DNA of 24,535 bases from a virus (lineage: Duplodnaviria > Caudoviricetes), in the IMG/VR virus record IMGVR_UViG_3300020043_002110, positions 1-24,535 of that record; one strand, given 5' to 3'. The position numbers and the translations under genes are program-made. Under the pieces are notes generated by a model, which was not told where the DNA came from, ran no database searches, and saw nothing but the letters and a program-made list of their open reading frames with translations. Below are positions 1 through 24,535 of this stretch, piece after piece. Numbering within the stretch: position 1 is the stretch's first letter; each line of letters opens with the position of its first letter.

Positions 1-81
1 ATACAATTGACCGAACGATTCAAACAATGGGACGGGATGCCCGCGAACTACACGAACGACGTCGTCGTTTTAACCCCGCCG
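1..81. repeat. 81-bp exact inverted copy of 5972-6052 (3' end of the RecE-like gene); probable chimeric contig end
   Basis: Positions 1-81 equal the reverse complement of 5972-6052; identity stops abruptly at 82. Confidence 0.9.
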
Positions 82-241
82 TGGTTCGGTATTCCGTCCC
101 CAACGCGGCCGCACATTCGTCGTCATACGTTCGGGCACATAGGTAATGCGAACCGGTATCGTCCATACCAACGAACACGCGCGTTTGCCATTCGCCACCG
201 CCGTTTCGTACTTCGATTATTTCGAGGAATTGTGGTGTCAT
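82..241 (-). CDS. hypothetical protein, 3' end interrupted by the inverted segment
   Basis: ATG at 241 overlaps the stop of ORF 238-486; the frame runs into the duplicated segment at position 81. Confidence 0.5.
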
Positions 242-486
242 TTGTTCACCGCGTTAACGTCGGGCAACTGGCAACAACAACGCAAACGTTTCTCGTCGTG
301 CGCGTCAATGAACGCCAACCGACCATCGGCGGCGTCAAACCCAGCGGCGAACAATGCACGTCGTACGATGTCAAGTGCGTCGTCGATGTGTGAAACGTGT
401 ACGATGTGCGACGAAATGGTGACGACGTCACCCTCGTGTTGTATTGTGACGCGGAACAATGGTTGGGTGTCGGCATAGTCAATCAT
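238..486 (-). CDS. hypothetical protein (82 aa)
   Basis: Co-directional ORF, coupled to the downstream gene by an ATGA overlap. Confidence 0.55.
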   Translation of the reverse strand: MIDYADTQPLFRVTIQHEGDVVTISSHIVHVSHIDDALDIVRRALFAAGFDAADGRLAFIDAHDEKRLRCCCQLPDVNAVNK

Positions 487-531
487 GGCAATGTGTGATT
501 AAATGCACATAATGTGCGGTTATTGTGTGAT

Positions 532-783
532 TCATTTGACGTGTGAGCAACTCATTTTGTGGTACCCGAACCCGCCGCATTCGTCGCAGTTCATTGCGCC
601 GACGACGTCGTTCAGTTGGTTGAATATCGATTGCGCGGTTTCGCCCCAATACATTTCGCATTTGCCGTCAACGATCGGCGGCGAAAGGAACGTCGATTGA
701 TAATCGGACGACGGCGACGTGTATCGGTAGCACGTTCCACGCATATGGCATCCGTCGCCCGTGCATTTGGTGATGTCGGTCAT
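532..783 (-). CDS. Cys-rich hypothetical protein, possibly Zn-binding
   Basis: DITKCTGDGC..RGTCYRYT...YQSTF..PP...CEMYW pattern that I recall from aquatic phage proteins, plus C-terminal CDEC..HKMSC. Confidence 0.7.
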   Translation of the reverse strand: MTDITKCTGDGCHMRGTCYRYTSPSSDYQSTFLSPPIVDGKCEMYWGETAQSIFNQLNDVVGAMNCDECGGFGYHKMSCSHVK

Positions 784-840
784 TTGGTGTTTTTATTCAT
801 CGTTGTGTTTCCAAACCGCGGTTGGTGATGTGTTGCCGCA

Positions 841-1008
841 TCATTCCGCGCGTTCGTGTTTGATGTACTCCAGCGACGCCGGCAGTTCATCAATGAATCG
901 TTGAACGTGTCGCGTACGGCGTTCGAACTGCAACCGCATAACGTGAACGCGGCCGGTTTCGCGGTGCCGTATGTGAAACGCGTACCATTCATTTCGTATG
1001 CGCCTCAC
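841..1008 (-). CDS. small hypothetical protein (start uncertain, GTG at 1008)
   Basis: 3' part of ORF 841..1086 lying outside the HNH gene; the alternative frame 780..992 cannot be excluded. Confidence 0.35.
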   Translation of the reverse strand: MRRIRNEWYAFHIRHRETGRVHVMRLQFERRTRHVQRFIDELPASLEYIKHERAE

Positions 1009-1282
1009 GCCCCGATTTAGAGTTGTGGCACGGGTGACACATTGTTTGCAGATTGTCCCACGCCAACGCGAGGTCGGGGTTGTCATTCACGCGAACGATG
1101 TGGTCGACGACGGCACCGGTGCGACCGCACACGATACACACGGGATTTGTTCGTATAAACATACCCCGCAGTTTGCGCCACGCGGCCGACTGGTAAAACG
1201 TTGAGTTGGCGTTTCGGCGTCCTTTGTCGAACCCCGATCCCGTCAACCACGGGCGTTGTTTGCGTTCGGGCATATTAGGCAT
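989..1282 (-). CDS. HNH endonuclease, terminase-associated (HK97 gp74-like)
   Basis: FYQSAAWRKLR...CIVC...VVDHIV...NLQTMCHPCHNSKS is the typical cos-phage HNH signature; start taken at MPNMPERK. Confidence 0.9.
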   Translation of the reverse strand: MPNMPERKQRPWLTGSGFDKGRRNANSTFYQSAAWRKLRGMFIRTNPVCIVCGRTGAVVDHIVRVNDNPDLALAWDNLQTMCHPCHNSKSGREAHTK

Positions 1283-1499
1283 TGACGTCGATGTGTGTGT
1301 AATCAAACGCGCGGTCGATTGTCACCACCGACGTCAACGCTTTGGTGCGGTCGTCGACCCGACGCGGCGTGGCCGCCGCTTGGTCGTCGTCCGCCAAACG
1401 TTGCAATGCACGTTCAACGGCGGGTTTGTTTGCGCGGTGAACGGAACCAATGTGTTCGAGCCATTCGGTGAAACCGCGGCGTGTTGTTTCGTTATTCAT
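1275..1499 (-). CDS. hypothetical protein (74 aa)
   Basis: Fills the gap, with short overlaps to both neighbours. Confidence 0.6.
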   Translation of the reverse strand: MNNETTRRGFTEWLEHIGSVHRANKPAVERALQRLADDDQAAATPRRVDDRTKALTSVVTIDRAFDYTHIDVNA

Positions 1500-1731
1500 G
1501 ATCTTGACACGTTTCGCCGTTGATACGGGTGTTGTTGCATTTGCACACGACGCACCGAGATTCGGGCGTGAACGTGTCCAGTTGTTGTTGTAGGGCGCGA
1601 ACGAGGGTGAATTTGAATTGCAATTTCGCGCGGATTACCAAACGCGCGGCGGCGCGGTAGTTGTCGCCCATAAGGTAGCGACGATGCAAACGCACGATGG
1701 CGTTTTCGAATGGTGTGAGTAGTTGGTTCAT
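1492..1731 (-). CDS. hypothetical protein (79 aa, starts MNQLLTPF)
   Basis: ATG at 1731 overlaps the TGA of the upstream small ORF; C-terminal CxxCxC cluster. Confidence 0.6.
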   Translation of the reverse strand: MNQLLTPFENAIVRLHRRYLMGDNYRAAARLVIRAKLQFKFTLVRALQQQLDTFTPESRCVVCKCNNTRINGETCQDHE

Positions 1732-1883
1732 CGAATCAATTGTTTGATGGTTGGAATGTCGATGGTTCCGTATTTGGCGTGGAACTTTAGTAAAACCTTT
1801 TCCGCATCGTAAAACGCGGCCGTTGTTTTCGGTGTCGTGTACGACGACCACGCCTCGGTCAGTTGTTGGATTTCCGTTTTCAT
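1728..1883 (-). CDS. small hypothetical protein (51 aa), not in the ORF track
   Basis: Manual translation MKTEIQQLTEAWSSYTTPKTTAAFYDAEKVLLKFHAKYGTIDIPTIKQLIR*; ATGA overlap with the next gene. Confidence 0.6.
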   Translation of the reverse strand: MKTEIQQLTEAWSSYTTPKTTAAFYDAEKVLLKFHAKYGTIDIPTIKQLIR

Positions 1884-1894
1884 TGTGCGACGGA

Positions 1895-2191
1895 TTAAAA
1901 AGATAGAACCATACCGGTTGCGAGTTCGAACATACCCATCAATTCGAAATTGAAAATGTTTTTTTGTTCGAACGTGGTTTTGATTTCCAGCGTGCGGCCG
2001 TTCAACTTGAATGCCTTGAGCGTGTATTGGTCTTGGCCGGCTTGAATGTCAATTGCAACGTACTTGTTGCGTGGGAACATAATTTGAATTCCGTTTTCGG
2101 TGTACACCACACCGGTTGCGTCGGTCATTGCGTAAACGCGCTTCATGCCTCCGAGTTGCTCAATGATTGTGTTTTTTGCTTGATTGTCCAT
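1895..2191 (-). CDS. phage hypothetical protein (TIIEQLGG..YAMT type)
   Basis: Starts MDNQAKNT after an A-rich leader and a consensus promoter; the N-terminus resembles a widespread 'TILxQLGGxxFxxMTGA' phage family from memory. Confidence 0.75.
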   Translation of the reverse strand: MDNQAKNTIIEQLGGMKRVYAMTDATGVVYTENGIQIMFPRNKYVAIDIQAGQDQYTLKAFKLNGRTLEIKTTFEQKNIFNFELMGMFELATGMVLSF

Positions 2192-2221
2192 GACGTTTTG
2201 TTTTTGTTTTGTTTCTTGAGT

Positions 2222-2251
2222 CAAATGTACAACAAAATGTTGAATGCACAA
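2222..2251 (-). promoter_or_regulatory. Bacteroidota housekeeping-sigma promoter
   Basis: Minus strand TTG-19 nt-TACATTTG, matching the -33 TTG / -7 TAnnTTTG consensus. Confidence 0.75.
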
Positions 2252-2308
2252 GTACAAATACCAAAATGAATCAAAATCGTGATACGTTGCATGAAATTTG
2301 AGAAAAAT

Positions 2309-2617
2309 TCAACCAATTTTCGCCGGCTTGCGCCCCAAATACGGGGCCATCCGATGAATACGGCATTCCCGAACCTTGGTCAACGTATTGTTCACCTCGT
2401 CGATTTGCAGCGCATTGTAAACCATTGCCGACCGATTGGCCGCTTTGATGTGCGGAATCTTTGACGGGTCTTTGATCGGTACGCATTGCCCGACGTCCAT
2501 CGTCATGACGCGTTCAATGATTTGTTCGATTAACTTGTCGTCGGCGGTCGTATCAATCAACAACCACCCCAAACCAGCGCGTTCGATTTCTTCGCGTGTA
2601 AGGCCGTTCAAAATCAT
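2309..2617 (-). CDS. hypothetical protein (102 aa)
   Basis: Overlaps the stop of the upstream gene; last gene of the replication operon. Confidence 0.7.
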   Translation of the reverse strand: MILNGLTREEIERAGLGWLLIDTTADDKLIEQIIERVMTMDVGQCVPIKDPSKIPHIKAANRSAMVYNALQIDEVNNTLTKVRECRIHRMAPYLGRKPAKIG

Positions 2618-3066
2618 TTTAACACTCGCATATGTTTCAACGGAATAAACGCGTTGTATCGTTCGACAATGCCCCCGTTGACGTTCTTTCGCGTTGTGGT
2701 ACGGGCGACGTCGTAATCAATCAACAACGACCCGTCGGCGTCGGCGACTTTGAACGACACGATGTTTTCCGAACCAATGAGGTAAACGATTAAAACAAAC
2801 GGAATGCCCAGCACGCGGGCGGCATCGCATCCGTCGGTGATTTTTTGATGGGTGACCAAATACGTTCCCATCGTGGCCAATTCGTCCAACGTCATTTCCC
2901 GCGATTTGAATTCGTAAACGGCCAACATATCGCCCTCATGGTTCAATACGATTCCATCGACGCGGGCGTATCGTGGCGTTTTAATGGTGCGCCACCCGTG
3001 CAAATCCGACAACAATATCATTGCGTCGATTTCGTGTTGTAGTGATTCCTCAAATGTCATGTTCAA
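2614..3066 (-). CDS. putative PD-(D/E)XK nuclease-fold protein
   Basis: YARVDG...VYEFKSR matches the D...ExK catalytic pattern. Confidence 0.6.
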   Translation of the reverse strand: MNMTFEESLQHEIDAMILLSDLHGWRTIKTPRYARVDGIVLNHEGDMLAVYEFKSREMTLDELATMGTYLVTHQKITDGCDAARVLGIPFVLIVYLIGSENIVSFKVADADGSLLIDYDVARTTTRKNVNGGIVERYNAFIPLKHMRVLK

Positions 3067-5036
3067 AATGGTGTGTCAAGTTCGTCGTTGTGGTCGTTGT
3101 ACGCGGCGCGTTGTGGTCGCCCGCTGGTCATTGTCACGATACCTTGGTCAAGCATCAAGTTGAACGCCTTTTGCGCCTCTTTTTGCTTTGCCGATTCCGT
3201 GTCGCGAATGAACGGAACGATTTCCGTTTTCATCTTGCCGTCAATCTTTTTTGCAATGCGTTGCAAATCGTCGGGTGTCCATACGCGGTCGAGTTCGTAA
3301 AAATCCGATTCAACGTGTTCCGTTAGCGAAATGGTGTCGTCCATACCCACGCGCATCGTTAATGCGGGAAATTCAATGTTTCTGGTGTATTCGGGCGTTA
3401 TATTGGAACACGACGCATCCGTTTCGTTTTTCGCCACACCGATGACCGATTCCGCCTTTTGAACCAAGTACGCTCCCAAATGACCCTTTGCGTTCCGGTC
3501 GTTTTTGTTTTCGTGCAAAACCGCAACCAATGTGCAATTGTAATCCGATGTCCATTTGAGCAACCGCGATGCGATTTCGGTCGCCTCTTCTTCGTCGTTG
3601 ACGCCCTTTGACGCCAAATCAACGATGCCGTCAACGATGACCAAACCAACGTTGGGAATGCGGGACAATGCGAATTCCACAAACGCGAAACGTTCGGCGT
3701 TGCGATCCAGCCCGCGGAATTTGAAATACTTCAAACGTTCGTGGTTCACCGATGGGTCGAATCCCGCCATTGTGAGAATGCGTTTCTTTGCCCGTGCCGC
3801 GTGCCAATCACCTTGTTCGGTGTCGATGTACACCACCATTTTGTCGCCGATGAACCCGCGCAATGCGTCGGCAACGACACCGCCCGACAATGCGGCGGCG
3901 GCGATTGCGGAAACCAAATACGATTTGCGGGATTTGGCTTTGCCTTGAATCAAAATAAAATTACCCAACGAACCCAACACGAACGATTCCAAACCCGTGA
4001 ACACGTCAACGGCAACGGGCGGGCGTTCAACTGGTATGGTCGAATCCACTTCCATCGCCATCAATGCCGCCAACATTTCATCCTCGGTCGGTTCGTCCGC
4101 CTCAAATGAATCGTTGTCGACCAACTTGTACGATGCCCCGAAACCGCGTTCGTTCAACTGGCGGTATGCCTCTTTAAAATCACCGCGGCATTCCAGCACG
4201 ACGAAGCATTGAAACGCGTCGTATGGTTTTTCTGCTTCGAATTCCGTTGACGTCGTCCACGGCCAAAACAAACCGGTATCGTTGAATATCACGCCCGACG
4301 TTTTGGCGTCCGTATCACCGGGGCGTTTCAAATATGTGTATTTTGCATTTTGCCCGACGATGCGCCATCCGTTCGCTTCGAGGATTTCCAACGCCGTGTG
4401 CGTTTCGCGGAACTCGCCCCACGGCGTTGTCGACGTCGCCTCGGTGCGGATTTTTTGTTCATGGGCCACGGCGACGATCGCGGGTGCCGTTGACGTCAAA
4501 CGGGCGCAACGGAATAAGATTTCACGTTCGTCGGGTGTGATACGCTGAACCAATGTGATTTTTGATTTCATCGAATACCCCGGTGACGGAAACACCACGA
4601 TTTGACCGCCGACGCCGCGTGTTTCGAATGTCGTTTCGCCGTTTAGGTTGCGGGCAAGTTTTTGATTGCCCTCGACCGAATCGCATTTGTAGATCCAATG
4701 TTGGCCACCCGACCGCGTGTTTTGGATTGTCATTTTCGAACGCAACCCGGGCGCCTCGGCATCAACGGCCGCGATGAATTCAACCAACTCGTCGCCGTCA
4801 AAATGCTTGGCGTCGATGTCCAACACCTCCAAACCATCGTACCCGCAAACGATGCCGATTGAATCCGTGTTCGTGAATAATTGTTCGGCGTCCCCCCAAC
4901 TGATTGGTTCGGTTCCGTATCGTTGCCACGCCTTTAGTGCGGGGCGTTTGTCACCCCGAACCAATGGTATGGGTGAAAATCCCGCGGCAAGATAGCGGCG
5001 GGCGATGTCAACGACGTCGTGTTGTTGTGAGGTCAT
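3063..5036 (-). CDS. Prim-Pol (bifunctional primase/polymerase) fused to an AAA_25/RecA-like helicase
   Basis: N-terminal GFSPIPL..GDKRP..W, IGIVCG..LEVLDID, TRSGGQH, ETRGVGGQIVVFPS; C-terminal Walker A GKAKSRKS, YIDTEQ, Walker B LVIVDG, VLHENK..KGHLG. Start taken at MTSQQ. Confidence 0.9.
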   Translation of the reverse strand: MTSQQHDVVDIARRYLAAGFSPIPLVRGDKRPALKAWQRYGTEPISWGDAEQLFTNTDSIGIVCGYDGLEVLDIDAKHFDGDELVEFIAAVDAEAPGLRSKMTIQNTRSGGQHWIYKCDSVEGNQKLARNLNGETTFETRGVGGQIVVFPSPGYSMKSKITLVQRITPDEREILFRCARLTSTAPAIVAVAHEQKIRTEATSTTPWGEFRETHTALEILEANGWRIVGQNAKYTYLKRPGDTDAKTSGVIFNDTGLFWPWTTSTEFEAEKPYDAFQCFVVLECRGDFKEAYRQLNERGFGASYKLVDNDSFEADEPTEDEMLAALMAMEVDSTIPVERPPVAVDVFTGLESFVLGSLGNFILIQGKAKSRKSYLVSAIAAAALSGGVVADALRGFIGDKMVVYIDTEQGDWHAARAKKRILTMAGFDPSVNHERLKYFKFRGLDRNAERFAFVEFALSRIPNVGLVIVDGIVDLASKGVNDEEEATEIASRLLKWTSDYNCTLVAVLHENKNDRNAKGHLGAYLVQKAESVIGVAKNETDASCSNITPEYTRNIEFPALTMRVGMDDTISLTEHVESDFYELDRVWTPDDLQRIAKKIDGKMKTEIVPFIRDTESAKQKEAQKAFNLMLDQGIVTMTSGRPQRAAYNDHNDELDTPF

Positions 5037-5418
5037 TCCAGTTGTCCAGTTTGTTTGTTTCGTTTTGCAGTACTCTAAATGTTTTTTGTCCGTTTGTTTC
5101 AGATGGCCGGACAAACCGCCACCGATCAATGTTCCCGTCGTACAACGCCAAAAAATCAACGTCGTCGTCGGTATATCGTTTTTTCGTCGCCCAACCTTTG
5201 CCGATGTTCCATTTCGATTTTCCGTTCAAATTGGTGAACGTCGATTTGACTTGTATTTTTATCGGTCGCCCGTCCCAAATCAATATCACGTCGGCGGCGG
5301 TTGAATCGCCAATGGGTTTGAATACCTCGAACCCGTAGCGCATCGCGTCGGCGACGAACTGCATTTCAGCCCATTCGCCGTTTTGCTTATCGCGTCGCCT
5401 CGGTGATTCGTCTTGCAT
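5008..5418 (-). CDS. PD-(D/E)XK endonuclease (PDDEXK_5 / I-Ssp6803I-like homing type)
   Basis: GEWAE..F...GFEVFKP.GD...DVI...IKIQVKST...Y...DVDFLALY pattern. Confidence 0.8.
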   Translation of the reverse strand: MQDESPRRRDKQNGEWAEMQFVADAMRYGFEVFKPIGDSTAADVILIWDGRPIKIQVKSTFTNLNGKSKWNIGKGWATKKRYTDDDVDFLALYDGNIDRWRFVRPSETNGQKTFRVLQNETNKLDNWNDLTTTRRR

Positions 5419-5818
5419 AATCGTCGTACGTCTTTGCGATAAAATACACGCCACCCGCGGCGTTTATTTCCCGTTCAACCTCACGTTGGTATTGGGACTG
5501 GCGGTCGGTTCCGATTTTTACCTCGATTCCGATGAACCGCCCATCCAATATACCAATGATATCGGGCACACCGCGTTTCGTGACGCCGGCACGATATACA
5601 CCGCGCGCTTTGTCGTACGTTGCCCCGTTGTTGATTCGGTATGCCGCACCACCGCGAACGTTGACGATGTCGTATATGATCGCATTCGTAAGGCCGTTGG
5701 CGTTTTTATCCGTGAACGTCGTCGTCGGTATCGCCGATTCGGGAATATGGGCATATTTCGTCGCGTTGTGTTTCTTTGCGAACTGGCGCAGTTCCGTTAA
5801 GGATGTGGGTGAGGGCAT
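5387..5818 (-). CDS. VRR-NUC domain nuclease (putative Holliday junction resolvase)
   Basis: GVPDIIG..DGRFIGIEVK...RQSQYQ......INAAGG.YFIA. Confidence 0.88.
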   Translation of the reverse strand: MPSPTSLTELRQFAKKHNATKYAHIPESAIPTTTFTDKNANGLTNAIIYDIVNVRGGAAYRINNGATYDKARGVYRAGVTKRGVPDIIGILDGRFIGIEVKIGTDRQSQYQREVEREINAAGGVYFIAKTYDDYARRITEATR

Positions 5819-5969
5819 AATTCGGCAAGTTCATTTCACAAAACGCGACCATGACCGCGATGTCGTCCGACAACGCAATCAATTCGTCGGATTCCCAACG
5901 TTCGGCCAACGTGCGCGCACGTTCGGCGAACTCCGAAACGCGGTTCAATCGTTGTTCAACGTCAGCCAT
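5706..5969 (-). CDS. hypothetical protein (starts MADVEQ)
   Basis: Fills the 5819-5944 gap but overlaps the VRR-NUC gene by 113 bp. Confidence 0.4.
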   Translation of the reverse strand: MADVEQRLNRVSEFAERARTLAERWESDELIALSDDIAVMVAFCEMNLPNYALTHILNGTAPVRKETQRDEICPYSRIGDTDDDVHG

Positions 5970-6679
5970 TGCGGCGGGGTTAAAACGACGACGTCGTTCG
6001 TGTAGTTCGCGGGCATCCCGTCCCATTGTTTGAATCGTTCGGTCAATTGTATTAATTCAAATATACCAAATTCAATCGACGCGGCGTCCATTTGAAATAC
6101 GCCGACGTTGTACGGCGAATTTGCCTCGACGCCAACAAAGTAGAACGTGTCCAAACCAAATGCGCGGCAGTACAACGACGCTTGCAAATGGTATTTGTTG
6201 CCGAACACCCAGCGTTTGAATGCGGATTCGGAAACGTCTTGCGTCGATTTCAAATCAGCAACGAACGTCGGCGCGACCATGTCGGCGAACCCGCGGTATG
6301 GGATTCCGGCGAAATCAAATTCAAACGACTGCTCGACGGCGGTCACTTGCGCGAACAATTCCGACGCGGCGGGGTGCGCCCACAATGCGGCCGCCATTCG
6401 TTCGATTATTTCGAATTCAGAATCTTTGAGAATTTCACGCGTTCCGGCGGCCTCTTCGACCTCTTTCCACGCGTTCGTGCCACGACGAATGTCGGGCGCG
6501 ACAAGGTATCGTTTTTCGAAATCGTCGGGTTCCAAAACAAACGTGTGCAACGCCGACCCGCGGGTCATGGCGGCGGTCGTTTCCCGTTGTTTGTTTTTGT
6601 AGGCGAGGAAATGGTTTGGCGATTTCGCAAATTCCTTGACGGACGAAAACGACAACGGCAAAAATGGTTTGGTTTTCAT
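5945..6679 (-). CDS. RecE/exonuclease VIII-like PD-(D/E)XK nuclease (DUF3799-like)
   Basis: LSFSSVK...SP.H, TAAMTRGSALH..VLEP..F, RGFAD..ADLKST, YHLQASLY, FYFVGVE..SPY; start MKTKPF is coupled by ATGA. Confidence 0.88.
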   Translation of the reverse strand: MKTKPFLPLSFSSVKEFAKSPNHFLAYKNKQRETTAAMTRGSALHTFVLEPDDFEKRYLVAPDIRRGTNAWKEVEEAAGTREILKDSEFEIIERMAAALWAHPAASELFAQVTAVEQSFEFDFAGIPYRGFADMVAPTFVADLKSTQDVSESAFKRWVFGNKYHLQASLYCRAFGLDTFYFVGVEANSPYNVGVFQMDAASIEFGIFELIQLTERFKQWDGMPANYTNDVVVLTPPQWLTLNND

Positions 6680-6822
6680 CGTTTCCAGCGATTGACCGAA
6701 ACCAAAATGGTGAGGTATGTGAACGATGTGACGAGGTAGTATGTTTCGGGGTCGGCGAATACCGCAATCGATGGGGTGATGAAAAACGCGTCTTCGTTTT
6801 TCCAAGTGATGTCAATGGTCAT
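6676..6822 (-). CDS. small hydrophobic hypothetical protein (48 aa), not in the ORF track
   Basis: MTIDITWKNEDAFFITPSIAVFADPETYYLVTSFTYLTILVSVNRWKR*; ATGA overlaps at both ends. Confidence 0.65.
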   Translation of the reverse strand: MTIDITWKNEDAFFITPSIAVFADPETYYLVTSFTYLTILVSVNRWKR

Positions 6823-7740: not shown

Positions 7741-7772
7741 GATTTAAAGTGCGTTTGTTTGTTTACGCTTGG

Positions 7773-7860: not shown

Positions 7861-7919
7861 CAACGCACACACTCAGTGCGCTCGCGGGTTCGGAAATTTA
7901 AGAAACAAACAAACAAACG

Positions 7920-16984: not shown

Positions 16985-16992
16985 GTTAATTG

Positions 16993-17427: not shown

Positions 17428-17429
17428 GA

Positions 17430-17603: not shown

Positions 17604-17989
17604 AATTTGATGATTCTGAATGTTAAATCAACTTGCTTGGCGAAATATCGTTCGTCGTCCGAAAACAAATCCCTTTCACCTTCAAATTTACAACTTTGCA
17701 CGGCAACGTCCAAAATTATTTCACGCATACGGACGAATGCGGAACGAACATAATCGATGCCGTTTGCGGTGTCGGAATAGTTCGTGGAAATAAGTGTGAT
17801 TCGCACGTCGACGGAATCAATGTGCGAATCCGAATCTTTGGTTCGGGACGGCGTATTATTTATCACCTCGTAAATGGCGTACGCGGCCGATTGCGCTTGT
17901 GCGCCAACCAACGGGAAAACACGCCCGCCGAATAACGAATTCAAATTCGCATCGGTCGTGAACTTTGATTTGATCACCTTGCCAATCAT
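17600..17989 (-). CDS. tail completion / terminator protein (DUF3168-like)
   Basis: GGRVFPL.....YAIYEVI...P..TKD pattern; position before the tail tube gene. Confidence 0.8.
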   Translation of the reverse strand: MIGKVIKSKFTTDANLNSLFGGRVFPLVGAQAQSAAYAIYEVINNTPSRTKDSDSHIDSVDVRITLISTNYSDTANGIDYVRSAFVRMREIILDVAVQSCKFEGERDLFSDDERYFAKQVDLTFRIIKL

Positions 17990-18534
17990 TGCACCGATTT
18001 ATTGAATTCATTTTCAATGTACGACTTTGCGTCGGCCGTGAACTTTGCCGTCACCAATGCCATCGTGCGCGCTTTGGCGCGGTCGGCGAAACCCAAGTTT
18101 GAACCGCCATACCGCCCCGATTTGATGTTTCCGTAGTTGATGAAATGCGCGAACCAACCGCCCTTTTCGGGGTCGGCAAATGCGCCCTTTACGCGTGGGC
18201 CGACCCAATATGCGGAAAACAAACGCGCGGGGCCATTCGTTTTGCCCTTGCCAATACCAATTGATTTGGCTAATGTTCCCGGCTGGATTTCCGCATACAA
18301 ACCGCCATTGCGGTACACCTTGATGGTTTTGTCGGCGTTCTCGATTTCGGCCTTCATCGCATCGCGCGTGATACGCATTGCGTCGCGTTGTAGTTTGCCC
18401 AAATCGCGTGCGTCGATGGCGTGTGCGAATTTGGAAAGTTCGTTCAACACACGCGAAAATTCGCGGTTCATTTCGGCACCATCGATACCGATACCGCCAA
18501 CGTCACCGCCTTTGTGTTTGTAGGTGCGTGCCAT
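17986..18534 (-). CDS. HK97 gp10-like tail/neck component
   Basis: PGTLAKSI...VGPR...GWFAHFINYG; canonical gene position. Confidence 0.75.
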   Translation of the reverse strand: MARTYKHKGGDVGGIGIDGAEMNREFSRVLNELSKFAHAIDARDLGKLQRDAMRITRDAMKAEIENADKTIKVYRNGGLYAEIQPGTLAKSIGIGKGKTNGPARLFSAYWVGPRVKGAFADPEKGGWFAHFINYGNIKSGRYGGSNLGFADRAKARTMALVTAKFTADAKSYIENEFNKSVQ

Positions 18535-18538
18535 CAGT

Positions 18539-18931
18539 TCACGAAATTATTTGTTCCCATTTGCGGGTGATTGCCTCCCAATTTGGAATGAACAATTCCC
18601 ATTTCATCATGTTCGCGTCCGACAAACGCGTGTGCAAAACCATCGTGTGACGGCGGGCATCGCCCGAAATGATGGATTCGATTTCGTAAATTTTACCGCG
18701 GTAAACAATCGGCATCCGTTCGTTGACGTCGTTGCGCCAACGAATCAAAAATTGAACTTTTTTTGATGCGATGATTTGGTCGGATTGTTCACCCTCGACG
18801 CCGCTTTTTTCCTCAACCTTTGCCCATACGGCCGCAAGGGTTGAAAATGATTTAATCCGTTGCCCGAATACGTCAACGGATTCCGTCACGTTTTGAATCG
18901 TGATGCGCTGGTCGAAATCGCCCGGATTCAT
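18539..18931 (-). CDS. head closure / head-tail adaptor (SPP1 gp16-like) with Trp-heptad C-terminal extension
   Basis: MNPGDFDQRITIQ..D.FG......VWAKV...FLIRWR.DV...M.IVY.GKIYEI; true start at 18931 (TGATG overlap), not 19135. Confidence 0.9.
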   Translation of the reverse strand: MNPGDFDQRITIQNVTESVDVFGQRIKSFSTLAAVWAKVEEKSGVEGEQSDQIIASKKVQFLIRWRNDVNERMPIVYRGKIYEIESIISGDARRHTMVLHTRLSDANMMKWELFIPNWEAITRKWEQIIS

Positions 18932-19512
18932 CAGAACTCGAAAACGCGGTATGGATTCCAAAGATATTCCGACGCCGTTGGCAAACGCTTCACGGAATCC
19001 GTGCGGTTTTCGTACATGTCGCCAATGACGAGCATCATGCCGTGTTTCAACGGCGCTGGAACGGCGGCGGCGTTGGCAAATCCCGCAACGTAACGCACGA
19101 ACACGGCGTTGATGGTTTCGTATGTTCCAAACCATCCGTTGTCGGGTGAAATACGCGCGGGGCGCGAAATGGTGTCGACTTTGTATTCGGCGGGATCCGC
19201 GGTGATCGTGGTTTCGTTCCCGTCGATGTATTTGACGTAGGTCACCGCCGACACCGGCGAACGTGACAAACGAATTTCGTCTTTGTAATCGCCCGAATAC
19301 TGCGGGAAATCGTCAAAGAATTCCTCAAATGTCGTTGGCAACAACGCCATTCGGGTGTATGATTCGCACAATTGACGCGCGGCCGTGATGAAAATGGCCA
19401 ACGTTGCGTCGTCATCCGAATGGTCAACGCGCAAAAATTCCTTAACCTCGGCCAATGTTAATGGTTCCGACGCGGGCGGCGTGACAATTTGAATGGTTTT
19501 TTGTGCGTTCAT
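18931..19512 (-). CDS. head-tail connector (HK97 gp6 / phiE125 gp8-like)
   Basis: EPLTLAEVKEFLRVD..DDD....ITAAR..CE.YT; VPAPLKHGM...IGDMYENR. Confidence 0.92.
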   Translation of the reverse strand: MNAQKTIQIVTPPASEPLTLAEVKEFLRVDHSDDDATLAIFITAARQLCESYTRMALLPTTFEEFFDDFPQYSGDYKDEIRLSRSPVSAVTYVKYIDGNETTITADPAEYKVDTISRPARISPDNGWFGTYETINAVFVRYVAGFANAAAVPAPLKHGMMLVIGDMYENRTDSVKRLPTASEYLWNPYRVFEF

Positions 19513-19515
19513 GGT

Positions 19516-19701
19516 TTAGCGTTTTTCCGTCTTTGATTTTGGAACGGCGCGTTCAGCCCGTTGGGCGGCGGGCTTGGCGATAACTTCCGCCAAACCCGCG
19601 CCAACGTACTCCATCGCCGCCTCGGCGGTAAGGGTATGCACCTCGCCCGAGCGATATGCAAACCCGTTACCAACCAAGGTTGTGAGGAATCGAATTTCCA
19701 T
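19516..19701 (-). CDS. small capsid-adjacent hypothetical protein (61 aa)
   Basis: Fills the gap between the capsid and connector genes. Confidence 0.75.
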   Translation of the reverse strand: MEIRFLTTLVGNGFAYRSGEVHTLTAEAAMEYVGAGLAEVIAKPAAQRAERAVPKSKTEKR

Positions 19702-19705
19702 TCGA

Positions 19706-20908
19706 TTAGGCAGTTTTCATAGTGATGTACTTGATGGCGGCACCATTGATCGCACCAGCGTCAGAACGCTTGTACGCAATGAATCCAACCAACAAAGCGT
19801 CAGCGTAACGCTCGTTCAAACGAAGCATTTGAACGCCACCAGCATTGCGAACAACGTACTTGCTGAAATCAGCGGCAACCAATGGTTTGTTGGTTGAAGC
19901 GATTGCGGCCATGTCGTTGTTGACGTAGAATGGTACACCGAATACGCGGTCGGGTTCTCCAGCGGCCATACCCGGGATAAACACGGGGAAATCGTTAGAT
20001 GAACCAACACCAAGTTTGCGGATAGCGGCGGCAGTTGAATCGGCACCCATAAGAGCGAACGAAGCAGAATTGCGGTACGACTTGTCAACGCTATGGATAA
20101 GGGTCAAGATTTCGTCGGCCGTGATTGCGGTTGCACTTGCGGTAGTGAGGGCAGATGAACCAGCGGTGATGATACCGGTTGGCTTGCTTGATCCGTCACC
20201 CGTGGTGAAATGCGCGTTTTGACCGCGTGCGATACGCTCGCCAAGGGCGTTCACAAGGAACGCGTCGAGGTCGAAAGCGGCGTCTTGCAACAATTGGTAA
20301 GAAACCTTTACGATTTTAGATGAGTAGGTATAGGCACCAAGGTTCAACGATGCAAACGTCATGTCGCTTACAACGTCGGCAGAACCTTCGCTCAAGATAG
20401 CACCAACGACGCTGGTGTCGTCAACCTTTGGGTAAGGCAACGTCGCGCCGCTTTGCGTGTTCAGAACTTGGGCAAGACGCTCAACCTCACCGGTGAACTT
20501 GCTCGCGACGTCAAGGGCGTACGAGAAATCTTCGGGGACGAGGTAACCACCGGCAGATGCTGGGGTCGTCAATTGTGGGTCGGTTCCACGTTGTTCAACG
20601 AGTGAACGCTCTTCGTTGTTCAGACCGGCAAGGCCATGACGAAGGTATTTAGAAAATGCCTCACGCTTGGTGATTTCCTTTTGTTCGGCACGGGCCTCAC
20701 GTCCAGCGGCAATTTCCTTTTTCATTTGCTCGGCGCGCTCGATTTTCTCGGCACTCTCACCAAGTGAGCGAACGTCGTTCTCGATTGCATCGAACTTTTG
20801 GTTTTCTTCGGCGTTCAGCGAACGGCCTTCGGTTTGTGCGGCGGCAACGATGTGATTCATTTCGTTGACCAACGCGGCGCGCTTTTCGCGCAGTTGGATT
20901 GAATTCAT
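19706..20908 (-). CDS. major capsid protein, HK97 fold, with N-terminal delta (scaffold) domain
   Basis: Coiled-coil N-terminal ~100 aa; AGGYLVPE, VSYQLLQD, GDGSSKPTGI, ADFSKY, RLNERYA. Confidence 0.96.
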   Translation of the reverse strand: MNSIQLREKRAALVNEMNHIVAAAQTEGRSLNAEENQKFDAIENDVRSLGESAEKIERAEQMKKEIAAGREARAEQKEITKREAFSKYLRHGLAGLNNEERSLVEQRGTDPQLTTPASAGGYLVPEDFSYALDVASKFTGEVERLAQVLNTQSGATLPYPKVDDTSVVGAILSEGSADVVSDMTFASLNLGAYTYSSKIVKVSYQLLQDAAFDLDAFLVNALGERIARGQNAHFTTGDGSSKPTGIITAGSSALTTASATAITADEILTLIHSVDKSYRNSASFALMGADSTAAAIRKLGVGSSNDFPVFIPGMAAGEPDRVFGVPFYVNNDMAAIASTNKPLVAADFSKYVVRNAGGVQMLRLNERYADALLVGFIAYKRSDAGAINGAAIKYITMKTA

Positions 20909-20911
20909 GAT

Positions 20912-22432
20912 TTATGAATTGAGGTTAATAATTCGTAGAATTAAAGAGCGCAAATTCGGCCGTTCGACCTCGTTCACGTTTTCGGTTTCCAAACCAATTG
21001 GTTCGGTTTGTGGTACGTCGACAACTTCGTCAACGTTTAATGCGCGCGACACCAATTGCGATGTGGCGGCGGGGTAGGCGGGAATCACAACGGGCGCAAC
21101 GTCAATCAAACGCGAAACCTTCGTGATTGTACGAACGTTTTGTTTGTTTTTGATTTCCCATTTGTCGGATTCGATCATAAATGCGAACGACGATTGATTG
21201 ACGTCACCGCGGCGCATCAATTCGGCCAAATCGTTGGCGTATGTCGTGTTCGGCAAATCGATTTCATACATTAAACCCTTTTCGTCGACCGAAAGGCGCA
21301 ACGTACCCGACGAAACCCGACCAAGTAAGTAGTTCCAATCGTGGTTGTAGAACCCGCGAACGTCGTCGTTCATGACGTCGTCGAACGCTCCCGGCGCGAT
21401 GTATTCAATGAACCCGCCCAAATCCTCGGACGGCGAATTGAATACGGCCGCATAACCGCGAATCGTTTGACCCATAACGTCGGCGCGTTGGGTTGTGGTA
21501 CGGCGTTCCATGATGGGAACGTTCTTGCGAACGTCGGCGTCGTATTCCTCAAGTGTGGAAAAACGATGCACCACGTTCAACGGCGGTTGTTGTTCGACGT
21601 ATGCCTCGATTTCGGTGTCGAATTCGTACACACGGATTTTTGCGGCGGGGTCGTCGGGCGTACCCGTTACCACAAAGCCCGAATCGGCCTCTAATTCGCC
21701 GTCCATTGCGATTTCAATGACGCGACCATACGCGAACCCGTTTGACGAATTCCAACGCACGAAATCGCCTAATTCGAGTTCATCGGGCATTGCCCGTGCG
21801 GCCGTCCCTCCCTTAACGCCGACGCCGCCGATTTCGGCCAACACGTCGTCGTTGTTTTCGTAATGACGAACAATGTTCAATTCGTTCACCTTTTCAATTT
21901 TTTTCTCGTTAGACCCCGTCGCGAAAATGCGCGATGCGGGAATTCCGTATTCCTCACCGAACGCGATCAATTCGGCGTCATCGTTGCGGGCGGAAATAAG
22001 GTAAACCTCGGAACCGGATTCCAATTCCTTTTGCAAATACTCTTTGCCCTCGTCCGTGGTCAACGTGCCATCGTAATCAAACGAAACGCGTTCGCCCTCG
22101 GCGCGCAATTCGCGTTTGTATTCCTCGGATTCTTTGTACGTTTCCTCGGCCCAAACCAACATTTCGTCACCGCCCCATGCCGCGTACATGACCGAACCGC
22201 ATATTTCGTTACCCTCGGAATCGAAAAAATCGCCTTGGTCGTAAACCTTGGCGCGGGATAAAAACGAATAAATGCGCGGCAGACGTTCAACCGACACGGC
22301 TTCGCGTTCGGACAAAATTCGGGCGGTTTCCCAACCAACGGCGGTGCCGCATTGCGAATCGTTTTCCTCGCGATGTTTCAACGCACGTTGCGCGTTGTCC
22401 GTGGCCGCTTGCGGGTAATCAGTCCAAGGCAT
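20912..22432 (-). CDS. HK97-family prohead protease with a large multi-domain N-terminal extension
   Basis: C-terminal IRGYAAVFNSPSEDLGGF.E.IAPGAF, FYNHD (His), QSSFAF (Ser), V..PAYPA; about 315 extra N-terminal residues. Confidence 0.93.
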   Translation of the reverse strand: MPWTDYPQAATDNAQRALKHREENDSQCGTAVGWETARILSEREAVSVERLPRIYSFLSRAKVYDQGDFFDSEGNEICGSVMYAAWGGDEMLVWAEETYKESEEYKRELRAEGERVSFDYDGTLTTDEGKEYLQKELESGSEVYLISARNDDAELIAFGEEYGIPASRIFATGSNEKKIEKVNELNIVRHYENNDDVLAEIGGVGVKGGTAARAMPDELELGDFVRWNSSNGFAYGRVIEIAMDGELEADSGFVVTGTPDDPAAKIRVYEFDTEIEAYVEQQPPLNVVHRFSTLEEYDADVRKNVPIMERRTTTQRADVMGQTIRGYAAVFNSPSEDLGGFIEYIAPGAFDDVMNDDVRGFYNHDWNYLLGRVSSGTLRLSVDEKGLMYEIDLPNTTYANDLAELMRRGDVNQSSFAFMIESDKWEIKNKQNVRTITKVSRLIDVAPVVIPAYPAATSQLVSRALNVDEVVDVPQTEPIGLETENVNEVERPNLRSLILRIINLNS

Positions 22433-22436
22433 CGTT

Positions 22437-23642
22437 TTAAATGCTTTGATCTTGACCGGCGTTCACCATGTTCAACGGCTGGAGGTACACGTCGCCACCA
22501 TCGACGTCGGGCAATTGTTCTTTTTTGCGAATGTCGTTCACCGACAACCAACCCCACTGGCGGCCGACGGCGTACGCATCGTATCTCGATTTGATGTCAC
22601 CACGAAGCAAACCCTCGAGGTTGAATTCGACGAAAAACGGCGATTCCAAACCAAACAATTTCAACGTGAATTCTTGTTCCCAACGCACGGCGTATGGGCG
22701 AATCGTATTGCGGACAAACTGAATACCTTGTTCCTCGACGTTCGCACGCGTGGCGGAATTTTTCAAATCGCCCAGCATATGCGGCGGAATAAGGAACCAG
22801 CGGGCAACCTCTTCGACTTGGAACTCGCGTGTTTGCAAAAACTGCGCTTGGTCGGGCGGAATCGTCATGCGCTCGATTTTCATACCCTCCTCGAGAATTG
22901 CGGTCTTGTGGGCGTTACCCAAACCGCCGTATGAATTCGCCCACGAATTTTTGATTCGAACGTATGCGTCGTCCGACAAACGTCCGGGGTGCGTTAACAC
23001 GCCACCGACGTTTGCGCCGTTGCCGAAAAATTGTGCGCCGAACTGGTTTGCCGCCAAACCAATTCCAAAGGTTTCGCGGGCGGCCTTGATCGGTGAAATA
23101 CCGACCATGCCGTCGAACGACAATCCACAAACGTGAATCATTTCGAAATCGGCGTAAACCTCTTTTTTGTCAACGTGGTAATATTTTTCGCCGTCGACGA
23201 CTTTGATTTCAACCCGCAATGGGTGAATCGGAACCAACTTGGTGACGGCGGCGGTTCCGTCGCGCTCGATGAATGCGTATGCGTTGCCGTGAAGCGCGAG
23301 GTTCGCCATCATCGTTTCGCGGAACGTCATTGACGTCATCATCGGATTCGGACGGCGCAGAATCTTCGTCATCGGGTGATTCGCCACCGCGACGGGTGAT
23401 TCGTCCTCGGTCGTGTAAACATTCCACGGCAACGACGCGATTGTTTCCGATAAAATGCGAACCGAAGCCCAAACCGCCGAAAACGTCATGGCGGTTTTTT
23501 CGTTTACCGAAACACCCGTTTTTGATCGGTCGTCAGAAAACAACCATTCGGCTGGTTTGGCCAACGACGTTGACGGGTTGTTGGGCGATGCGCGGAACAA
23601 TCCGCGGAATCGGTCAATGAGGGTGTTTTGCGTTTCGGCCAT
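22437..23642 (-). CDS. portal protein, HK97 family
   Basis: SAVWASVRILSETIASLP, LHGNAYA, GISPI, FFGNGA..GGVL, ILEEGM, DQAQFLQTR, GWLSVNDIR. Confidence 0.97.
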   Translation of the reverse strand: MAETQNTLIDRFRGLFRASPNNPSTSLAKPAEWLFSDDRSKTGVSVNEKTAMTFSAVWASVRILSETIASLPWNVYTTEDESPVAVANHPMTKILRRPNPMMTSMTFRETMMANLALHGNAYAFIERDGTAAVTKLVPIHPLRVEIKVVDGEKYYHVDKKEVYADFEMIHVCGLSFDGMVGISPIKAARETFGIGLAANQFGAQFFGNGANVGGVLTHPGRLSDDAYVRIKNSWANSYGGLGNAHKTAILEEGMKIERMTIPPDQAQFLQTREFQVEEVARWFLIPPHMLGDLKNSATRANVEEQGIQFVRNTIRPYAVRWEQEFTLKLFGLESPFFVEFNLEGLLRGDIKSRYDAYAVGRQWGWLSVNDIRKKEQLPDVDGGDVYLQPLNMVNAGQDQSI

Positions 23643-23659
23643 GGTACGGGAATCCCCAC

Positions 23660-23689
23660 CAAAAATACGAAACGTATTCCAAACCGCAC
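23660..23689 (-). promoter_or_regulatory. possible promoter of the head/tail operon
   Basis: -7 box TATTTTTG at 23660-23667; the -33 position reads GTG rather than TTG. Confidence 0.45.
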
Positions 23690-23702
23690 ACGAATTGACC
23701 GA

Positions 23703-23835
23703 AAAAATTTATTGACACGCGTTGTTGATTTTATTTTTATTTATATATATCCCTTTAGGGATATATATAAATAAAAATAAAATACACGGCGCATCAATAC
23801 GAAGCAAATAAATAAACGAAAACTTTCGAACAATG
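23703..23835. repeat. AT-rich palindromic element, copy 2
   Basis: Perfect 27-bp arms (23728-23754 / 23757-23783) around TT; direct repeat of 8168-8297. Confidence 0.95.
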
Positions 23836-24114
23836 TCAGTTTTCCCGTTCGTACGCAATCAAAAGGTGAATATAATACCCCATCAAATCGTAGATTGTGT
23901 CAATGGTTTCATCGTTCACACCGACCGCTTGAATGCGGGACAACTTGTCGTCGATGCGTCCGCAAATGGATTCAACCGACGACGATTTTGAGAAAACCCG
24001 CACGGGGTTTTGTAACGAATCGCCGTACGTCGTGTTTTTGGACAAAACCAAATCTTCGAGTTTCTCGATGATTTCGGAAATCTTTTCATTCGTGTGTTTC
24101 GCGTCTTTTAGCAT
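23836..24114 (-). CDS. DUF1599 / nucleotide modification-associated domain 1 (Nmad1)-like protein
   Basis: KNTTYGDS...RIDDKLSRI...DTIYDLMGYY signature. Confidence 0.82.
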   Translation of the reverse strand: MLKDAKHTNEKISEIIEKLEDLVLSKNTTYGDSLQNPVRVFSKSSSVESICGRIDDKLSRIQAVGVNDETIDTIYDLMGYYIHLLIAYEREN

Positions 24115-24304
24115 TGTTTAGGCAGTTTTGAAATGATTGATAGCGGGTGAATCGTCGGCGTCCGTAAACCGAAACGTGCATCAATTCACACATTTCGTAC
24201 GCCTCGATTTTTTGTGCGCCCTCGTCGGTGTAAACCTTGAACAATTGGTTGAAGGAATCCAATGTGGCGCATTGATTTTTAAACACTTGGGTTTTGTTTT
24301 TCAT
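24086..24304 (-). CDS. hypothetical protein (72 aa)
   Basis: ATGA-coupled to the terminase stop. Confidence 0.65.
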   Translation of the reverse strand: MKNKTQVFKNQCATLDSFNQLFKVYTDEGAQKIEAYEMCELMHVSVYGRRRFTRYQSFQNCLNNAKRRETHE

Positions 24305-24535
24305 AGGTATCGTATTCCAGTTTGGTCGTACACGGAACCATTGTCGCCGTTGTTCCGCGTCGCGGTCATAAATTCACCAATCGCCATCGCCAGTGCGACG
24401 ACGCCGTCAATCTTGTCGCCCGATTTATTCTTGACGAACTTGACGTTCATCGCCTCATCAAGTTTGGTTTGAACGTTCGAAACCATCCAACGAAGCATTG
24501 AATTGCCGCCGTGGTGTAGTTTCTTTTTCTTTACC
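24301..24535 (-). CDS. terL: terminase large subunit, C-terminal fragment (partial, runs off the window)
   Basis: LHHGGNSMLRWMVSNV...NVKFVKNKSGDKIDGVVALAMAI is the Terminase_1 nuclease C-terminus. Confidence 0.93.
   Translation of the reverse strand, partial: VKKKKLHHGGNSMLRWMVSNVQTKLDEAMNVKFVKNKSGDKIDGVVALAMAIGEFMTATRNNGDNGSVYDQTGIRYL

Follow-up and report, generated by a model that had tools for sequence, protein, structure and literature searches.

Genome-wide AG/CT depletion in a lake siphophage and its relatives may be a pooled shadow of host restriction

What could make a phage genome shed most copies of a single dinucleotide? The window analysed here (the whole 24,535-nucleotide stretch of IMG/VR record IMGVR_UViG_3300020043_002110) comes from a lake-water bacterial virus and holds most of an HK97-like siphophage; the record is linear and was estimated by CheckV to be 70% complete. 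An earlier note on this DNA had described a loss of AG/CT on both strands together with abundant CG, and the full counts bear this out (AG 431 and CT 522; symmetrised rho 0.311; rho of CG about 1.78, AA/TT about 1.51, TA 0.49, and GA/TC 0.99). Its hand counts of AG+CT were exact (7 in 1-360, 4 in 12001-12300, and 9 in 21301-21600), and the codon preferences that it listed were recovered as well: TTG makes up 311 of 544 Leu codons, AAA 265 of 368 Lys, GAA 323 of 442 Glu, CAA 225 of 245 Gln, TCG 207 of 462 Ser, and CGN 430 of 445 Arg codons. The main features of the window are these:

1..81, plus strand: contig end that repeats 5972-6052 exactly in inverted orientation
82..24535, every called gene on the minus strand: HK97-like siphophage fragment with genome-wide AG/CT depletion (rho 0.31)
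3063..7740, minus strand: replication/recombination module (Prim-Pol/AAA primase-helicase, PD-(D/E)XK nucleases, exonuclease VIII-like protein, SSB), 29-43 AG+CT per kb
8820..9236, minus strand: Amidase_2 endolysin
9837..11216, minus strand: tail-fibre module of two genes, 98-104 AG+CT per kb
11429..13972, minus strand: 847-aa gene after the tape measure, 16.9 AG+CT per kb
16993..17427, minus strand: major tail protein gene, 67.6 AG+CT per kb
19706..20908, minus strand: major capsid gene, 83.5 AG+CT per kb
20912..23642, minus strand: prohead protease gene (33 AG+CT per kb) and portal gene (37.5 AG+CT per kb)

The inverted copy at 1..81 is probably a chimeric end and irrelevant to the AG/CT signal; the joint linking it with 5972-6052 was absent in all three runs searched. 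The 847-aa gene, the most purged among the large genes, may occupy the tail-tip position, and its product gave a single weak PHROG match of unknown function. No methyltransferase or base-modification gene was found among the 38 window proteins, and no tRNA gene in the window.

At one-kb resolution, rho(AG/CT) was at most 0.41 in 23 of the 25 bins, and only the tail-fibre bin (10001-11000, 0.80) and the capsid bin (20001-21000, 0.69) stood higher. The bins showed no end-to-end gradient across the window, and an AG-free first-injected end was rejected on that account. The depletion extends to codon junctions, where 300 synonymous shuffles predicted 507.8 AG and 484.0 CT against 194 and 94 observed (ratios 0.38 and 0.19; z -21.6 and -28.9, respectively), and to the 1,422 intergenic bases (AG 20 vs 87 and CT 21 vs 87 expected, i.e., 0.23-0.24 on both strands). 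Codon bias or amino-acid composition, which the earlier note had named as a potential full cause, is largely refuted as such by the junction shuffles, and the depletion survives that check. Recoding the same proteins without an AG penalty gave a rho of 0.83-0.88, and a modelled uniform AG penalty of about 2 log units reproduced a rho of 0.29-0.32. Since the AG-only penalty also lifted CG (1.16 to about 1.5; observed 1.79) and AA (1.08 to 1.34; observed 1.50), the CG excess appears to be mostly a by-product, and we rejected it as an independent trait.

The portal gene served as the marker for relative searches and for the tree. Across 122 family loci the trait was bimodal, with 52 loci below a rho of 0.6, 65 at 0.8 or above, and 5 in between. 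In the low-AG state, the window phage and many relatives keep a quarter to half of the expected AG/CT; relatives also occur in marine records. The trait was gained or lost at least four times in the family, whose low clades are A (which includes the window), B, C, and D, and whose normal sister clade is N1.

Is this state held by selection or produced by mutation? Singleton synonymous gains of AG/CT were suppressed in clades A (71 vs 231.5 expected) and C (134 vs 610.6) and normal in N1 (127 vs 116.7; 1.09), with ratios of 0.31 in A and 0.22 in C; gains counted alongside the losses below stood at 0.35 and 0.19. Gains fell below neutral in nine of the ten substitution types that permit a gain, and gains of nine other dinucleotide classes in clade A ranged from 0.56 to 1.65. 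Losses in the two low clades (10 vs 7.2 expected, and 23 vs 24.9 in clade C) are not clearly faster. Because gains are suppressed in A and C and normal in N1, and losses are not clearly faster, the depletion looks like selection, not hypermutation: context-specific hypermutation, which needs faster loss by one route with normal gains, does not fit, and the same loss counts disfavour the mutational process that had been raised as an alternative in the earlier note. The effect reaches the protein level: in four low clades, dipeptides that force an AG ([KEQ]-[VADEG]) ranged from 0.72 to 0.84, against 0.97-1.00 for two normal sets. TA gains were mixed (52 vs 49.9 in clade A, 83 vs 196 in clade C), and we did not retain TA as currently selected.

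Which longer words carry the effect? Near-absent short words in clade A include ones with AG (observed/expected: ACAG 10/93, CAGG 1/64, AGCT 2/56, GGAAG 11/60, CAGTG 4/40, GAGTC 2/35, CCAGA 1/31) and ones without it (ACCGT 0/151, GGACC 1/81, AACNGTT 0/65, GAAN4TTC 8/75), and type II-like palindromes (AGCT, ACCGT, GGACC, AACNGTT, GAAN4TTC) were rarer there than shorter words predict. The ban on CAGG applies to clades A and D and does not extend to B and C. All 16 xAGy contexts were below 0.7 in the window core, where the base preceding AG was, relative to background, A at 1.92, G at 1.03, C at 0.62, and T at 0.44. Across 208 hexamers, AG contexts were graded from 0 to 0.9 of neutral in a clade-specific manner, with a median retention of 0.11-0.24 and none above 0.94 in clades A, C, and D; the near-neutral contexts included CCAGCG (68 vs 75) and CCAGTT (41 vs 48) in clade A and AAAGAA (55 vs 58) in clade D. 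No clean rule separated allowed from forbidden AG (cross-validated AUC 0.78, against 0.70 when site type is the only predictor). AAG and GAG are CRISPR PAM sequences, and avoidance of these PAMs was rejected since AAG is the best-retained AG context. The earlier suggestion that the phage evades host defences whose targets share an AG core stands in part: suppressed gains and a shadow running from the A of AG to a distal T (described below) favour it, and the motifs named as examples do not appear to carry the effect. Under a null that keeps codons and junctions, EcoP15I CAGCAG (0 vs 2.6) and BREX TAGGAG (0 vs 0.6) were too rare in clade A to inform, BREX GGTAAG was not depleted (11 vs 10.7), and DarT TCTC was moderately low (70 vs 110), with TCT slightly so (526 vs 563).

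The distal T gives a more geometric clue. Counting from the A of AG, T at +7/+8/+9/+10 occurred at 0.89/0.81/0.77/0.93 of expectation in clade A, 0.75/0.79/0.67/0.83 in clade B, 0.95/0.81/0.57/0.86 in clade C, and 0.82/0.74/0.69/0.77 in clade D, with near-normal values at the flanking lags (+6, 1.00-1.11; +11, 0.97-1.05) and 0.96-1.05 for the control pairs T..A, G..C, and C..G at lags +7 to +10. In type I families, 6-9 bp lie between the two target adenines, which places a T at +7 to +10 (PMC12707154 Table 1), and we read the gap as type I geometry because the lags match this spacing. The window itself shows the loss of TA as well as a type I-like spacing, both of which had escaped the earlier note: T at +7 to +10 followed AG 403 times vs 468 expected (z -3.8), TA 608 vs 763 (z -7.0), and other A 6299 vs 6353, with the gap running from +8 to +10 for AG (no depletion at +7, 131 vs 120) and from +7 to +10 for TA. 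The shadow of N1 differs (A-N7-T 0.70 in all contexts, CC/GG gains 0.38). This spacing signal accounts for only about 1.8-2.8-fold: optional AG was kept at 0.17, 0.11, 0.09, and 0.16 of neutral where at least two T lay at +7 to +10, and still at 0.30, 0.29, 0.22, and 0.44 where none did, so type I systems fail as the sole cause; AG gains without a downstream T were likewise low (0.37 and 0.27). Many bipartite 3+3 words were low or zero, spread across many half-sites.

On balance, we lean toward reading the AG/CT depletion as the joint imprint of a host restriction arsenal that is large, varied, and rich in AG at its core. Weak genome-wide selection would likely remove targets of many restriction-type systems whose recognised adenine often stands before G. 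The T gap would then pool the traces of many type I (or IIB) sites whose half-sites carry AG or TA, and the larger T-independent part those of contiguous AG-containing sites (type II, IIG, III, and BREX-like). In this proposal no single site is targeted because specificities differ between host strains, and loss of the shared core may be the cheapest general escape; the trait would switch when a phage lineage changes host group. In its favour, one lake Bacteroidetes methylome has five bipartite motif pairs, four with AG and one with TA, in addition to GAANNNNTTC (PMC6329791). Against it, AC is also frequent in such restriction sites and is not depleted (0.98-1.23), and none of the five bipartite motifs of BS15 was individually depleted in clade A (41 vs 38.3 summed). 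Against the type I part, a survey saw no phage avoidance of type I or IIG sites (PMC6286503), and no type I motifs were detected in marine MAGs (PMC8919816), although relatives of the window phage occur in marine records.

Genes that keep AG/CT fit into the pooled-restriction reading if abundant proteins retain AG-containing codons for translation and purge the worst contexts only. The capsid retains 100 AG/CT steps and uses GCT in 14 of 59, TCT in 9 of 33, and AAG in 13 of 20 cases, vs 11 of 417, 5 of 238, and 50 of 175 in eight core genes, a preference (for GCT, TCT, CTT, and AAG) which suggests that host translation favours these codons. It nevertheless holds none of six banned words (AGCT, ACAG, CAGG, CTAG, GGWCC, ACNGT), all of which are also absent from the major tail protein gene, a second partial exception, and T at +9 after AG is low in the capsid (10 vs 23.6 expected). 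The tail-fibre module carries all nine CAGG/CCTG sites and both ACNGT sites, lacks the T+9 gap (36 vs 37.4), and is at most 38-45% identical to fibre genes of relatives; it may be a recent acquisition, still unpurged. More generally, resident genes are purged, and apparently new ones stand at 100-135 AG+CT per kb.

The host is probably a member of Bacteroidota, to which the Amidase_2 endolysin is a weak pointer. Matches to cultured phages disagree on host group: the primase resembles Cellulophaga and Flavobacterium phages (28-32% identity), the amidase Bacteroides phages (55%), the portal Firmicutes phages (43-47%), the capsid rhizobial phages (36%), and the exonuclease cyanophages (33%). A portal scan of genome contigs returned two unrelated loci at 38-40% identity, in an Alphaproteobacteria MAG and a Phycisphaerae MAG, and we rejected both as hosts. 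Two cultured Bacteroidota phages (30 kb each) lacked a clear spacing gap, and their rho(AG) was 1.16 and 1.27; low AG is thus not general to Bacteroidota phages. The accessible part of PMC7198788 does not identify the phage family of the window.

Could one enzyme replace the arsenal? A single undescribed host defence might read the AG step itself on double-stranded DNA (e.g., a low-rate nickase, glycosylase, or base-modifying enzyme that makes each AG costly), with ordinary site avoidance on top. The low values in all 16 xAGy contexts, the low median hexamer retention, the 2-4-fold T-independent depletion, and the bimodal family speak for it, as do the modelled uniform penalty (about 2 log units), which reproduces the low rho and predicts a gain ratio of about 0.31, matching clade A, and the AG-specific enzymes known from chloroviruses (PMC3017599). 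Yet some contexts are near neutral and differ between clades, the capsid keeps its AG/CT steps, RAG is less depleted than YAG (the reverse of a known R^AG nickase), and a uniform penalty predicts raised losses, which clade C does not show. We therefore hold only as a tentative possibility that a widespread aquatic group, probably Bacteroidota, has such a defence and flips phage lineages between two compositional states. If true, the strength of this defence would suffice to reshape codons and dipeptides throughout the phage genome, and rho(AG) with the A-to-T shadow would be a fingerprint of host group and immunity for uncultured phages.

Explanations that do without restriction fare worse. 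Drift of the phage toward an AG-poor, CG-rich host chromosome shaped by mutation or repair bias agrees with the strand-symmetric and intergenic depletion, with the contrast between purged resident genes and apparently new ones, and with state changes on the tree as host shifts predict; we consider it unlikely, as gains are suppressed on nearly all routes with losses not clearly faster, protein dipeptides are affected too, and the capsid prefers AG- and CT-containing codons. We also know of no mutational explanation for a directional A..T gap at 7-10 bases. Modification by the phage of its own DNA at AG (by a Mom-like enzyme or a methyltransferase), with trimming of costly or mutable sites, draws on some low-AG relatives that carry, beside the terminase, either Mom together with an N6/N4 methyltransferase (L016) or a fused ATPase-GNAT gene (L020, L097), in a stretch that is missing from the window. 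But Mom occurred in 1 of 20 records and an N6/N4 methyltransferase in none of three close virus records, methyltransferases turned up sporadically in both states, and, clade-bound genes aside, no gene family set 19 low records apart from 20 normal ones (all records being fragments). This makes such self-modification very improbable, and the base modification raised in the earlier note is disfavoured in its phage-made form. Least credible is codon/tRNA adaptation combined with amino-acid composition, which has the strongly skewed codon usage in its favour but is already largely refuted by the junction ratios with codon usage fixed, the intergenic DNA, and the recoding result; the lack of a tRNA gene also speaks against it.

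How does the pooled-restriction reading compare with known systems? Our literature search, which had most subscription journals outside its coverage, found no report of AG/CT-depleted phage genomes. Neisseria AG/CT may lie near 0.7, a value on which we do not rely. The MANTIS preprint gives a hemimethylated CAACAG target, and type I BREX PglX methylates the adenine (m6A) in the fifth position of an asymmetric 6-bp motif, e.g., GATCAG, with AG at its 3′ end (PMC11341690). Single BREX motifs are too rare or undepleted here, and only a large pool could matter. Chlorovirus Nt.CviQII (R^AG) and M.CviQII (AG) demonstrate that enzymes can read AG or RAG (PMC3017599); this pair is virus-encoded in an algal system, whereas the window phage encodes no such pair and retains RAG better, and the expectation from an R^AG nickase (RAG more depleted than YAG) fails in the window core. 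Type I systems are able to shape phage sequence, as the Mme2I motif is missing from the first-injected region of Murciavirus phages (PMC12455610), a local effect of one motif, while the depletion here is genome-wide, varies by gene type, and has no end-to-end gradient. The 6-9 bp adenine spacing of type I families IA-IE matches our T gap, and GAG half-sites occur in StyLT7III, EcoAI, and EcoEI (PMC12707154); no single 3+4 site explains the signal here, which is known from sequence and spreads over many second half-sites. Phage restriction-site avoidance is alike in that a non-temperate-looking dsDNA phage has absent or rare palindromes (AGCT, CTAG, GGWCC, ACNGT, GAAN4TTC, CCAN5TGG). The survey of such avoidance (PMC6286503) saw it mainly for orthodox type II sites and not for type I or IIG sites, whereas pooling of half-sites here reveals a clear shadow at type I adenine spacing, both in the low-AG clades and, differently shaped, in normal sister clades; the loss here also extends to a whole non-palindromic dinucleotide. 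It follows that host immunity may be legible in phage DNA even when neither the host nor any single motif is known. The family offers natural replicates, as its state has changed at least four times between close relatives with a common gene set, and its 2-4-fold T-independent AG penalty is a precise lead to an AG-biased restriction arsenal or to a new dinucleotide-reading defence.

The window contains 431 AG and 522 CT dinucleotides, giving a strand-symmetrised observed/expected ratio, rho, of 0.311 (at most 0.41 in 23 of 25 one-kb bins), with the mirror step GA/TC normal (0.99), TA at 0.49, CG at 1.78 and AA/TT at 1.51. The three hand counts of AG+CT in the earlier note proved exact on recount, and the depletion it claimed on both strands is confirmed at codon junctions (AG 194 and CT 94 against 507.8 and 484.0 expected with proteins and codon usage held fixed) and in intergenic DNA (AG 20 and CT 21 against 87 expected for each; 11 segments, 1,422 bases). 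Because junction and intergenic AG/CT are both low, the depletion acts on DNA, on both strands, and codon bias is excluded as its source. When the same proteins were recoded with AG/CT alone penalised, rho came to 0.32, CG to 1.54 and AA to 1.34, and thus the CG excess is for the most part a by-product. A literature search found no published account of AG/CT-depleted phage genomes.

The window is a fragment of an HK97-like siphophage whose called genes all lie on the minus strand. A scan of 38 proteins identified the large terminase end, portal, protease, capsid, connectors, major tail protein, tape measure and tail fibre, together with amidase, SSB, exonuclease, primase-helicase and HNH genes; no integrase or modification gene was matched among these proteins, and the window has no tRNA gene. 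Compared with 27-33 kb relatives, it is missing the small terminase, the greater part of the large one and the adjoining optional slot. The sequence was present in 20 of the 24 runs listed, from 14 studies, mostly labelled lake water, freshwater or estuary. Our best guess for the host phylum is Bacteroidota, because the amidase matches Bacteroides phages, the primase matches Cellulophaga and Flavobacterium phages, Bacteroidota is the most frequent phylum among the 10 Atlas cluster members of known phylum, and one normal-AG relative has a T9SS sorting domain, below cut-off; portal, capsid and exonuclease matches were to other host groups, at low identity.

Features of the window
1-81 and 5972-6052: inverted copy, 100% identical, from the exonuclease gene end
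8184-8297 and 23719-23836: two related elements between genes (103 nt; similarity 76%), located upstream of both main gene blocks; each has an AT-rich inverted repeat of 34-36 bp around a spacer of 2 nt and may be an operator, promoter or origin
20912-22432, minus strand: prohead protease, 506 aa, with a long N-terminal extension and an Hva1-type Tudor match preceding the S78 domain

None of the three runs examined showed a joint between bases 1-81 and the exonuclease region, so this end of the contig is probably chimeric.

Rho was 0.29-0.46 in every one of the 29 close loci (protein identity 78-100%; some share a contig), 0.83-0.96 in 13 distant primase loci and 0.73-1.12 in 29 further, more distant loci. 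Of 122 distinct loci with a capsid gene (identity of 52% or more, length of 4 kb or more), 52 were low (<0.6), 5 lay at 0.6-0.8 and 65 were normal (>=0.8), and rho(AG) correlated with rho(CG) at -0.88. The portal tree (82 rows: 36 low, 42 normal, 4 intermediate not counted; quick IQ-TREE run, SH-aLRT only, midpoint root) requires at least four state changes, every one forced by strongly supported branches, and the states are likewise patchy on the capsid tree. CG remains at 1.14-1.32 in nine normal rows nested within a low group, suggesting, under the midpoint root, a reversal. Low and normal states were not separated by any protein family, clade-bound genes aside, in a set of 42 partial records (19 low, 20 normal and 3 intermediate); the best splits were 9 versus 0 for the exonuclease and 0 versus 9 for an 85-aa protein with no Pfam match. 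Since, in addition, Mom occurred in 1 of 20 records and methyltransferases were scattered over low and normal records alike, the cause likely lies outside the phage, and self-modification, for which no gene was matched among the window's proteins, is unlikely. Two further biases were observed: normal-AG subclade L107, L108, L122 and L153 is CG-poor (0.48-0.59), opposite to the window's clade, and CATG, of which the window has 43 copies, is missing or almost missing from L014-L016, L020 and L024-L027, a recent, lineage-specific site loss. The modification-type genes that some low-AG relatives have in the optional slot are AG-poor too (24-33 AG+CT per kb in L016 and L020).

Accessory features of relatives (local coordinates)
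L016:5858-7792, L020:6136-7293 and L097:43-1206: Mom with N6/N4 methyltransferase or ABC-ATPase/GNAT fusion, in the optional slot adjoining terminase
L256:1879-4145, L257:1715-2944 and L254:8764-9573 (normal-AG): TET-associated glycosyltransferase with FkbM methyltransferase; PAS histidine kinase; thymidylate synthase
L020:3459-5403: array of short related genes, several starting MKQTAV, 104-135 AG+CT per kb; apparently newly acquired

Polarised synonymous changes seen in one relative only were compared with matched neutral changes, genes above 62 AG+CT per kb being omitted in low-AG clades A (3 of 29), which contains the window, and C. AG/CT gains numbered 71 against 231.5 expected in A, 134 against 610.6 in C and 127 against 116.7 in the normal-AG sister clade N1 (ratios 0.32, 0.19 and 1.14 with CG and TA held fixed), with 9 of the 10 types of substitution below neutral; losses were 10 against 7.2, 23 against 24.9 and 147 against 151. 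The test is noisy, judging by the spread of nine other dinucleotide classes (0.56-1.65 in A, 0.42-1.36 in C), with AG lowest in both. Dipeptides with unavoidable AG stood at 0.72, 0.74, 0.78 and 0.84 in low clades A-D, once the genes with more than 75 AG+CT per kb, namely capsid, fibres and new genes, had been dropped, and at 1.00 and 0.97 in normal sets; the homologs pooled in the clade counts are not independent. With gains suppressed and losses near expectation, the mutational process raised in the earlier note is disfavoured. The AG/CT loss is genuine and spans the lineage, and its most likely source is selection imposed by the host, a reading of which we are largely confident.

Shuffles that preserved protein, codon counts and junction dinucleotides served as the null. 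In each of the four low clades, T was scarce at +7 to +10 downstream of the adenine of surviving AG steps, most strongly at +9 (minimum 0.57-0.77), and normal at +6 and +11. The A of TA showed a similar gap (0.67-0.92), with control pairs T..A, G..C and C..G at 0.96-1.05. In the window alone, T over +7 to +10 numbered 403 against 468 after AG, 608 against 763 after TA and 6299 against 6353 after other A; controls at +11 to +14 were flat, and +7 after AG showed no depletion. Type IIB sites overlap this spacing range. In type I families the two target adenines lie 6-9 bp apart (PMC12707154), which places T at +7 to +10, the observed gap. Normal clades carry another shadow, with A..T low at +8 whatever the context (N1 0.70, N2 0.86); N1 also has suppressed CC/GG gains (0.38), a host shadow of another kind. 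CCGG and GGWCC are absent from most N1 loci (e.g., L045-L062).

Type I systems are not the sole cause. Optional AG without T at +7 to +10 was still reduced to 0.30, 0.29, 0.22 and 0.44 of neutral in clades A-D, against 0.17, 0.11, 0.09 and 0.16 with at least two T (control offsets flat), and AG gains with and without T were 0.27 versus 0.37 in A and 0.19 versus 0.27 in C. The remaining depletion is graded by near context (the 208 hexamers in A span 0 to 0.9, with a median of 0.15) and differs among clades, CAGG being banned in A and D, not B and C. Nearly absent from clade A are ACAG, CAGG, AGCT, GGAAG, CAGTG, GAGTC and CCAGA and, among words lacking AG, ACCGT, GGACC and AACNGTT. Judged from sequence, this fits the combined effect of many contiguous sites, BREX-type NNNNAG motifs (PMC11341690) among them; a single AG penalty applied uniformly, with ordinary site avoidance on top, could account for the same data equally well.

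The capsid gene retains GCT, TCT, CTT and AAG codons, contains none of the six banned words AGCT, ACAG, CAGG, CTAG, GGWCC and ACNGT, and has 10 T at +9 after AG against 23.6 expected; every one of the 9 CAGG sites lies in the fibre module, which shows no T gap; and apparently new genes of relatives carry 100-135 AG+CT per kb. Given these exceptions, the simplest reading is that per-site selection would be weak, could be outweighed by translation and would need time to act on newly acquired DNA. The earlier proposal of escape from AG-core defences is partly supported. The best single mechanism would be that the phage avoids the pooled sites of an AG-biased restriction arsenal, a reading we favour somewhat over its negation; an unknown host reader of the AG step itself ranks next, as a rather doubtful possibility, and host mimicry, like codon bias, is unlikely.

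The AG/CT loss works like restriction-site avoidance. In PMC6329791, a lake Bacteroidetes bin has AG in four of five bipartite motif pairs and TA in the fifth, plus a GAANNNNTTC motif; clade A is short of GAANNNNTTC (8 against 75) but not of the five bipartite motifs (41 against 38.3), so this bin is rejected as the host and serves as an analogy only. The known R^AG nickase pattern (PMC3017599) does not hold here, because the phage retains RAG better than YAG. One survey describes type I sites as not avoided by phages (PMC6286503), and another source gives a local case of a type I effect on phage sequence (PMC12455610); the T gap of the low-AG clades resembles type I restriction-site avoidance in its spacing.
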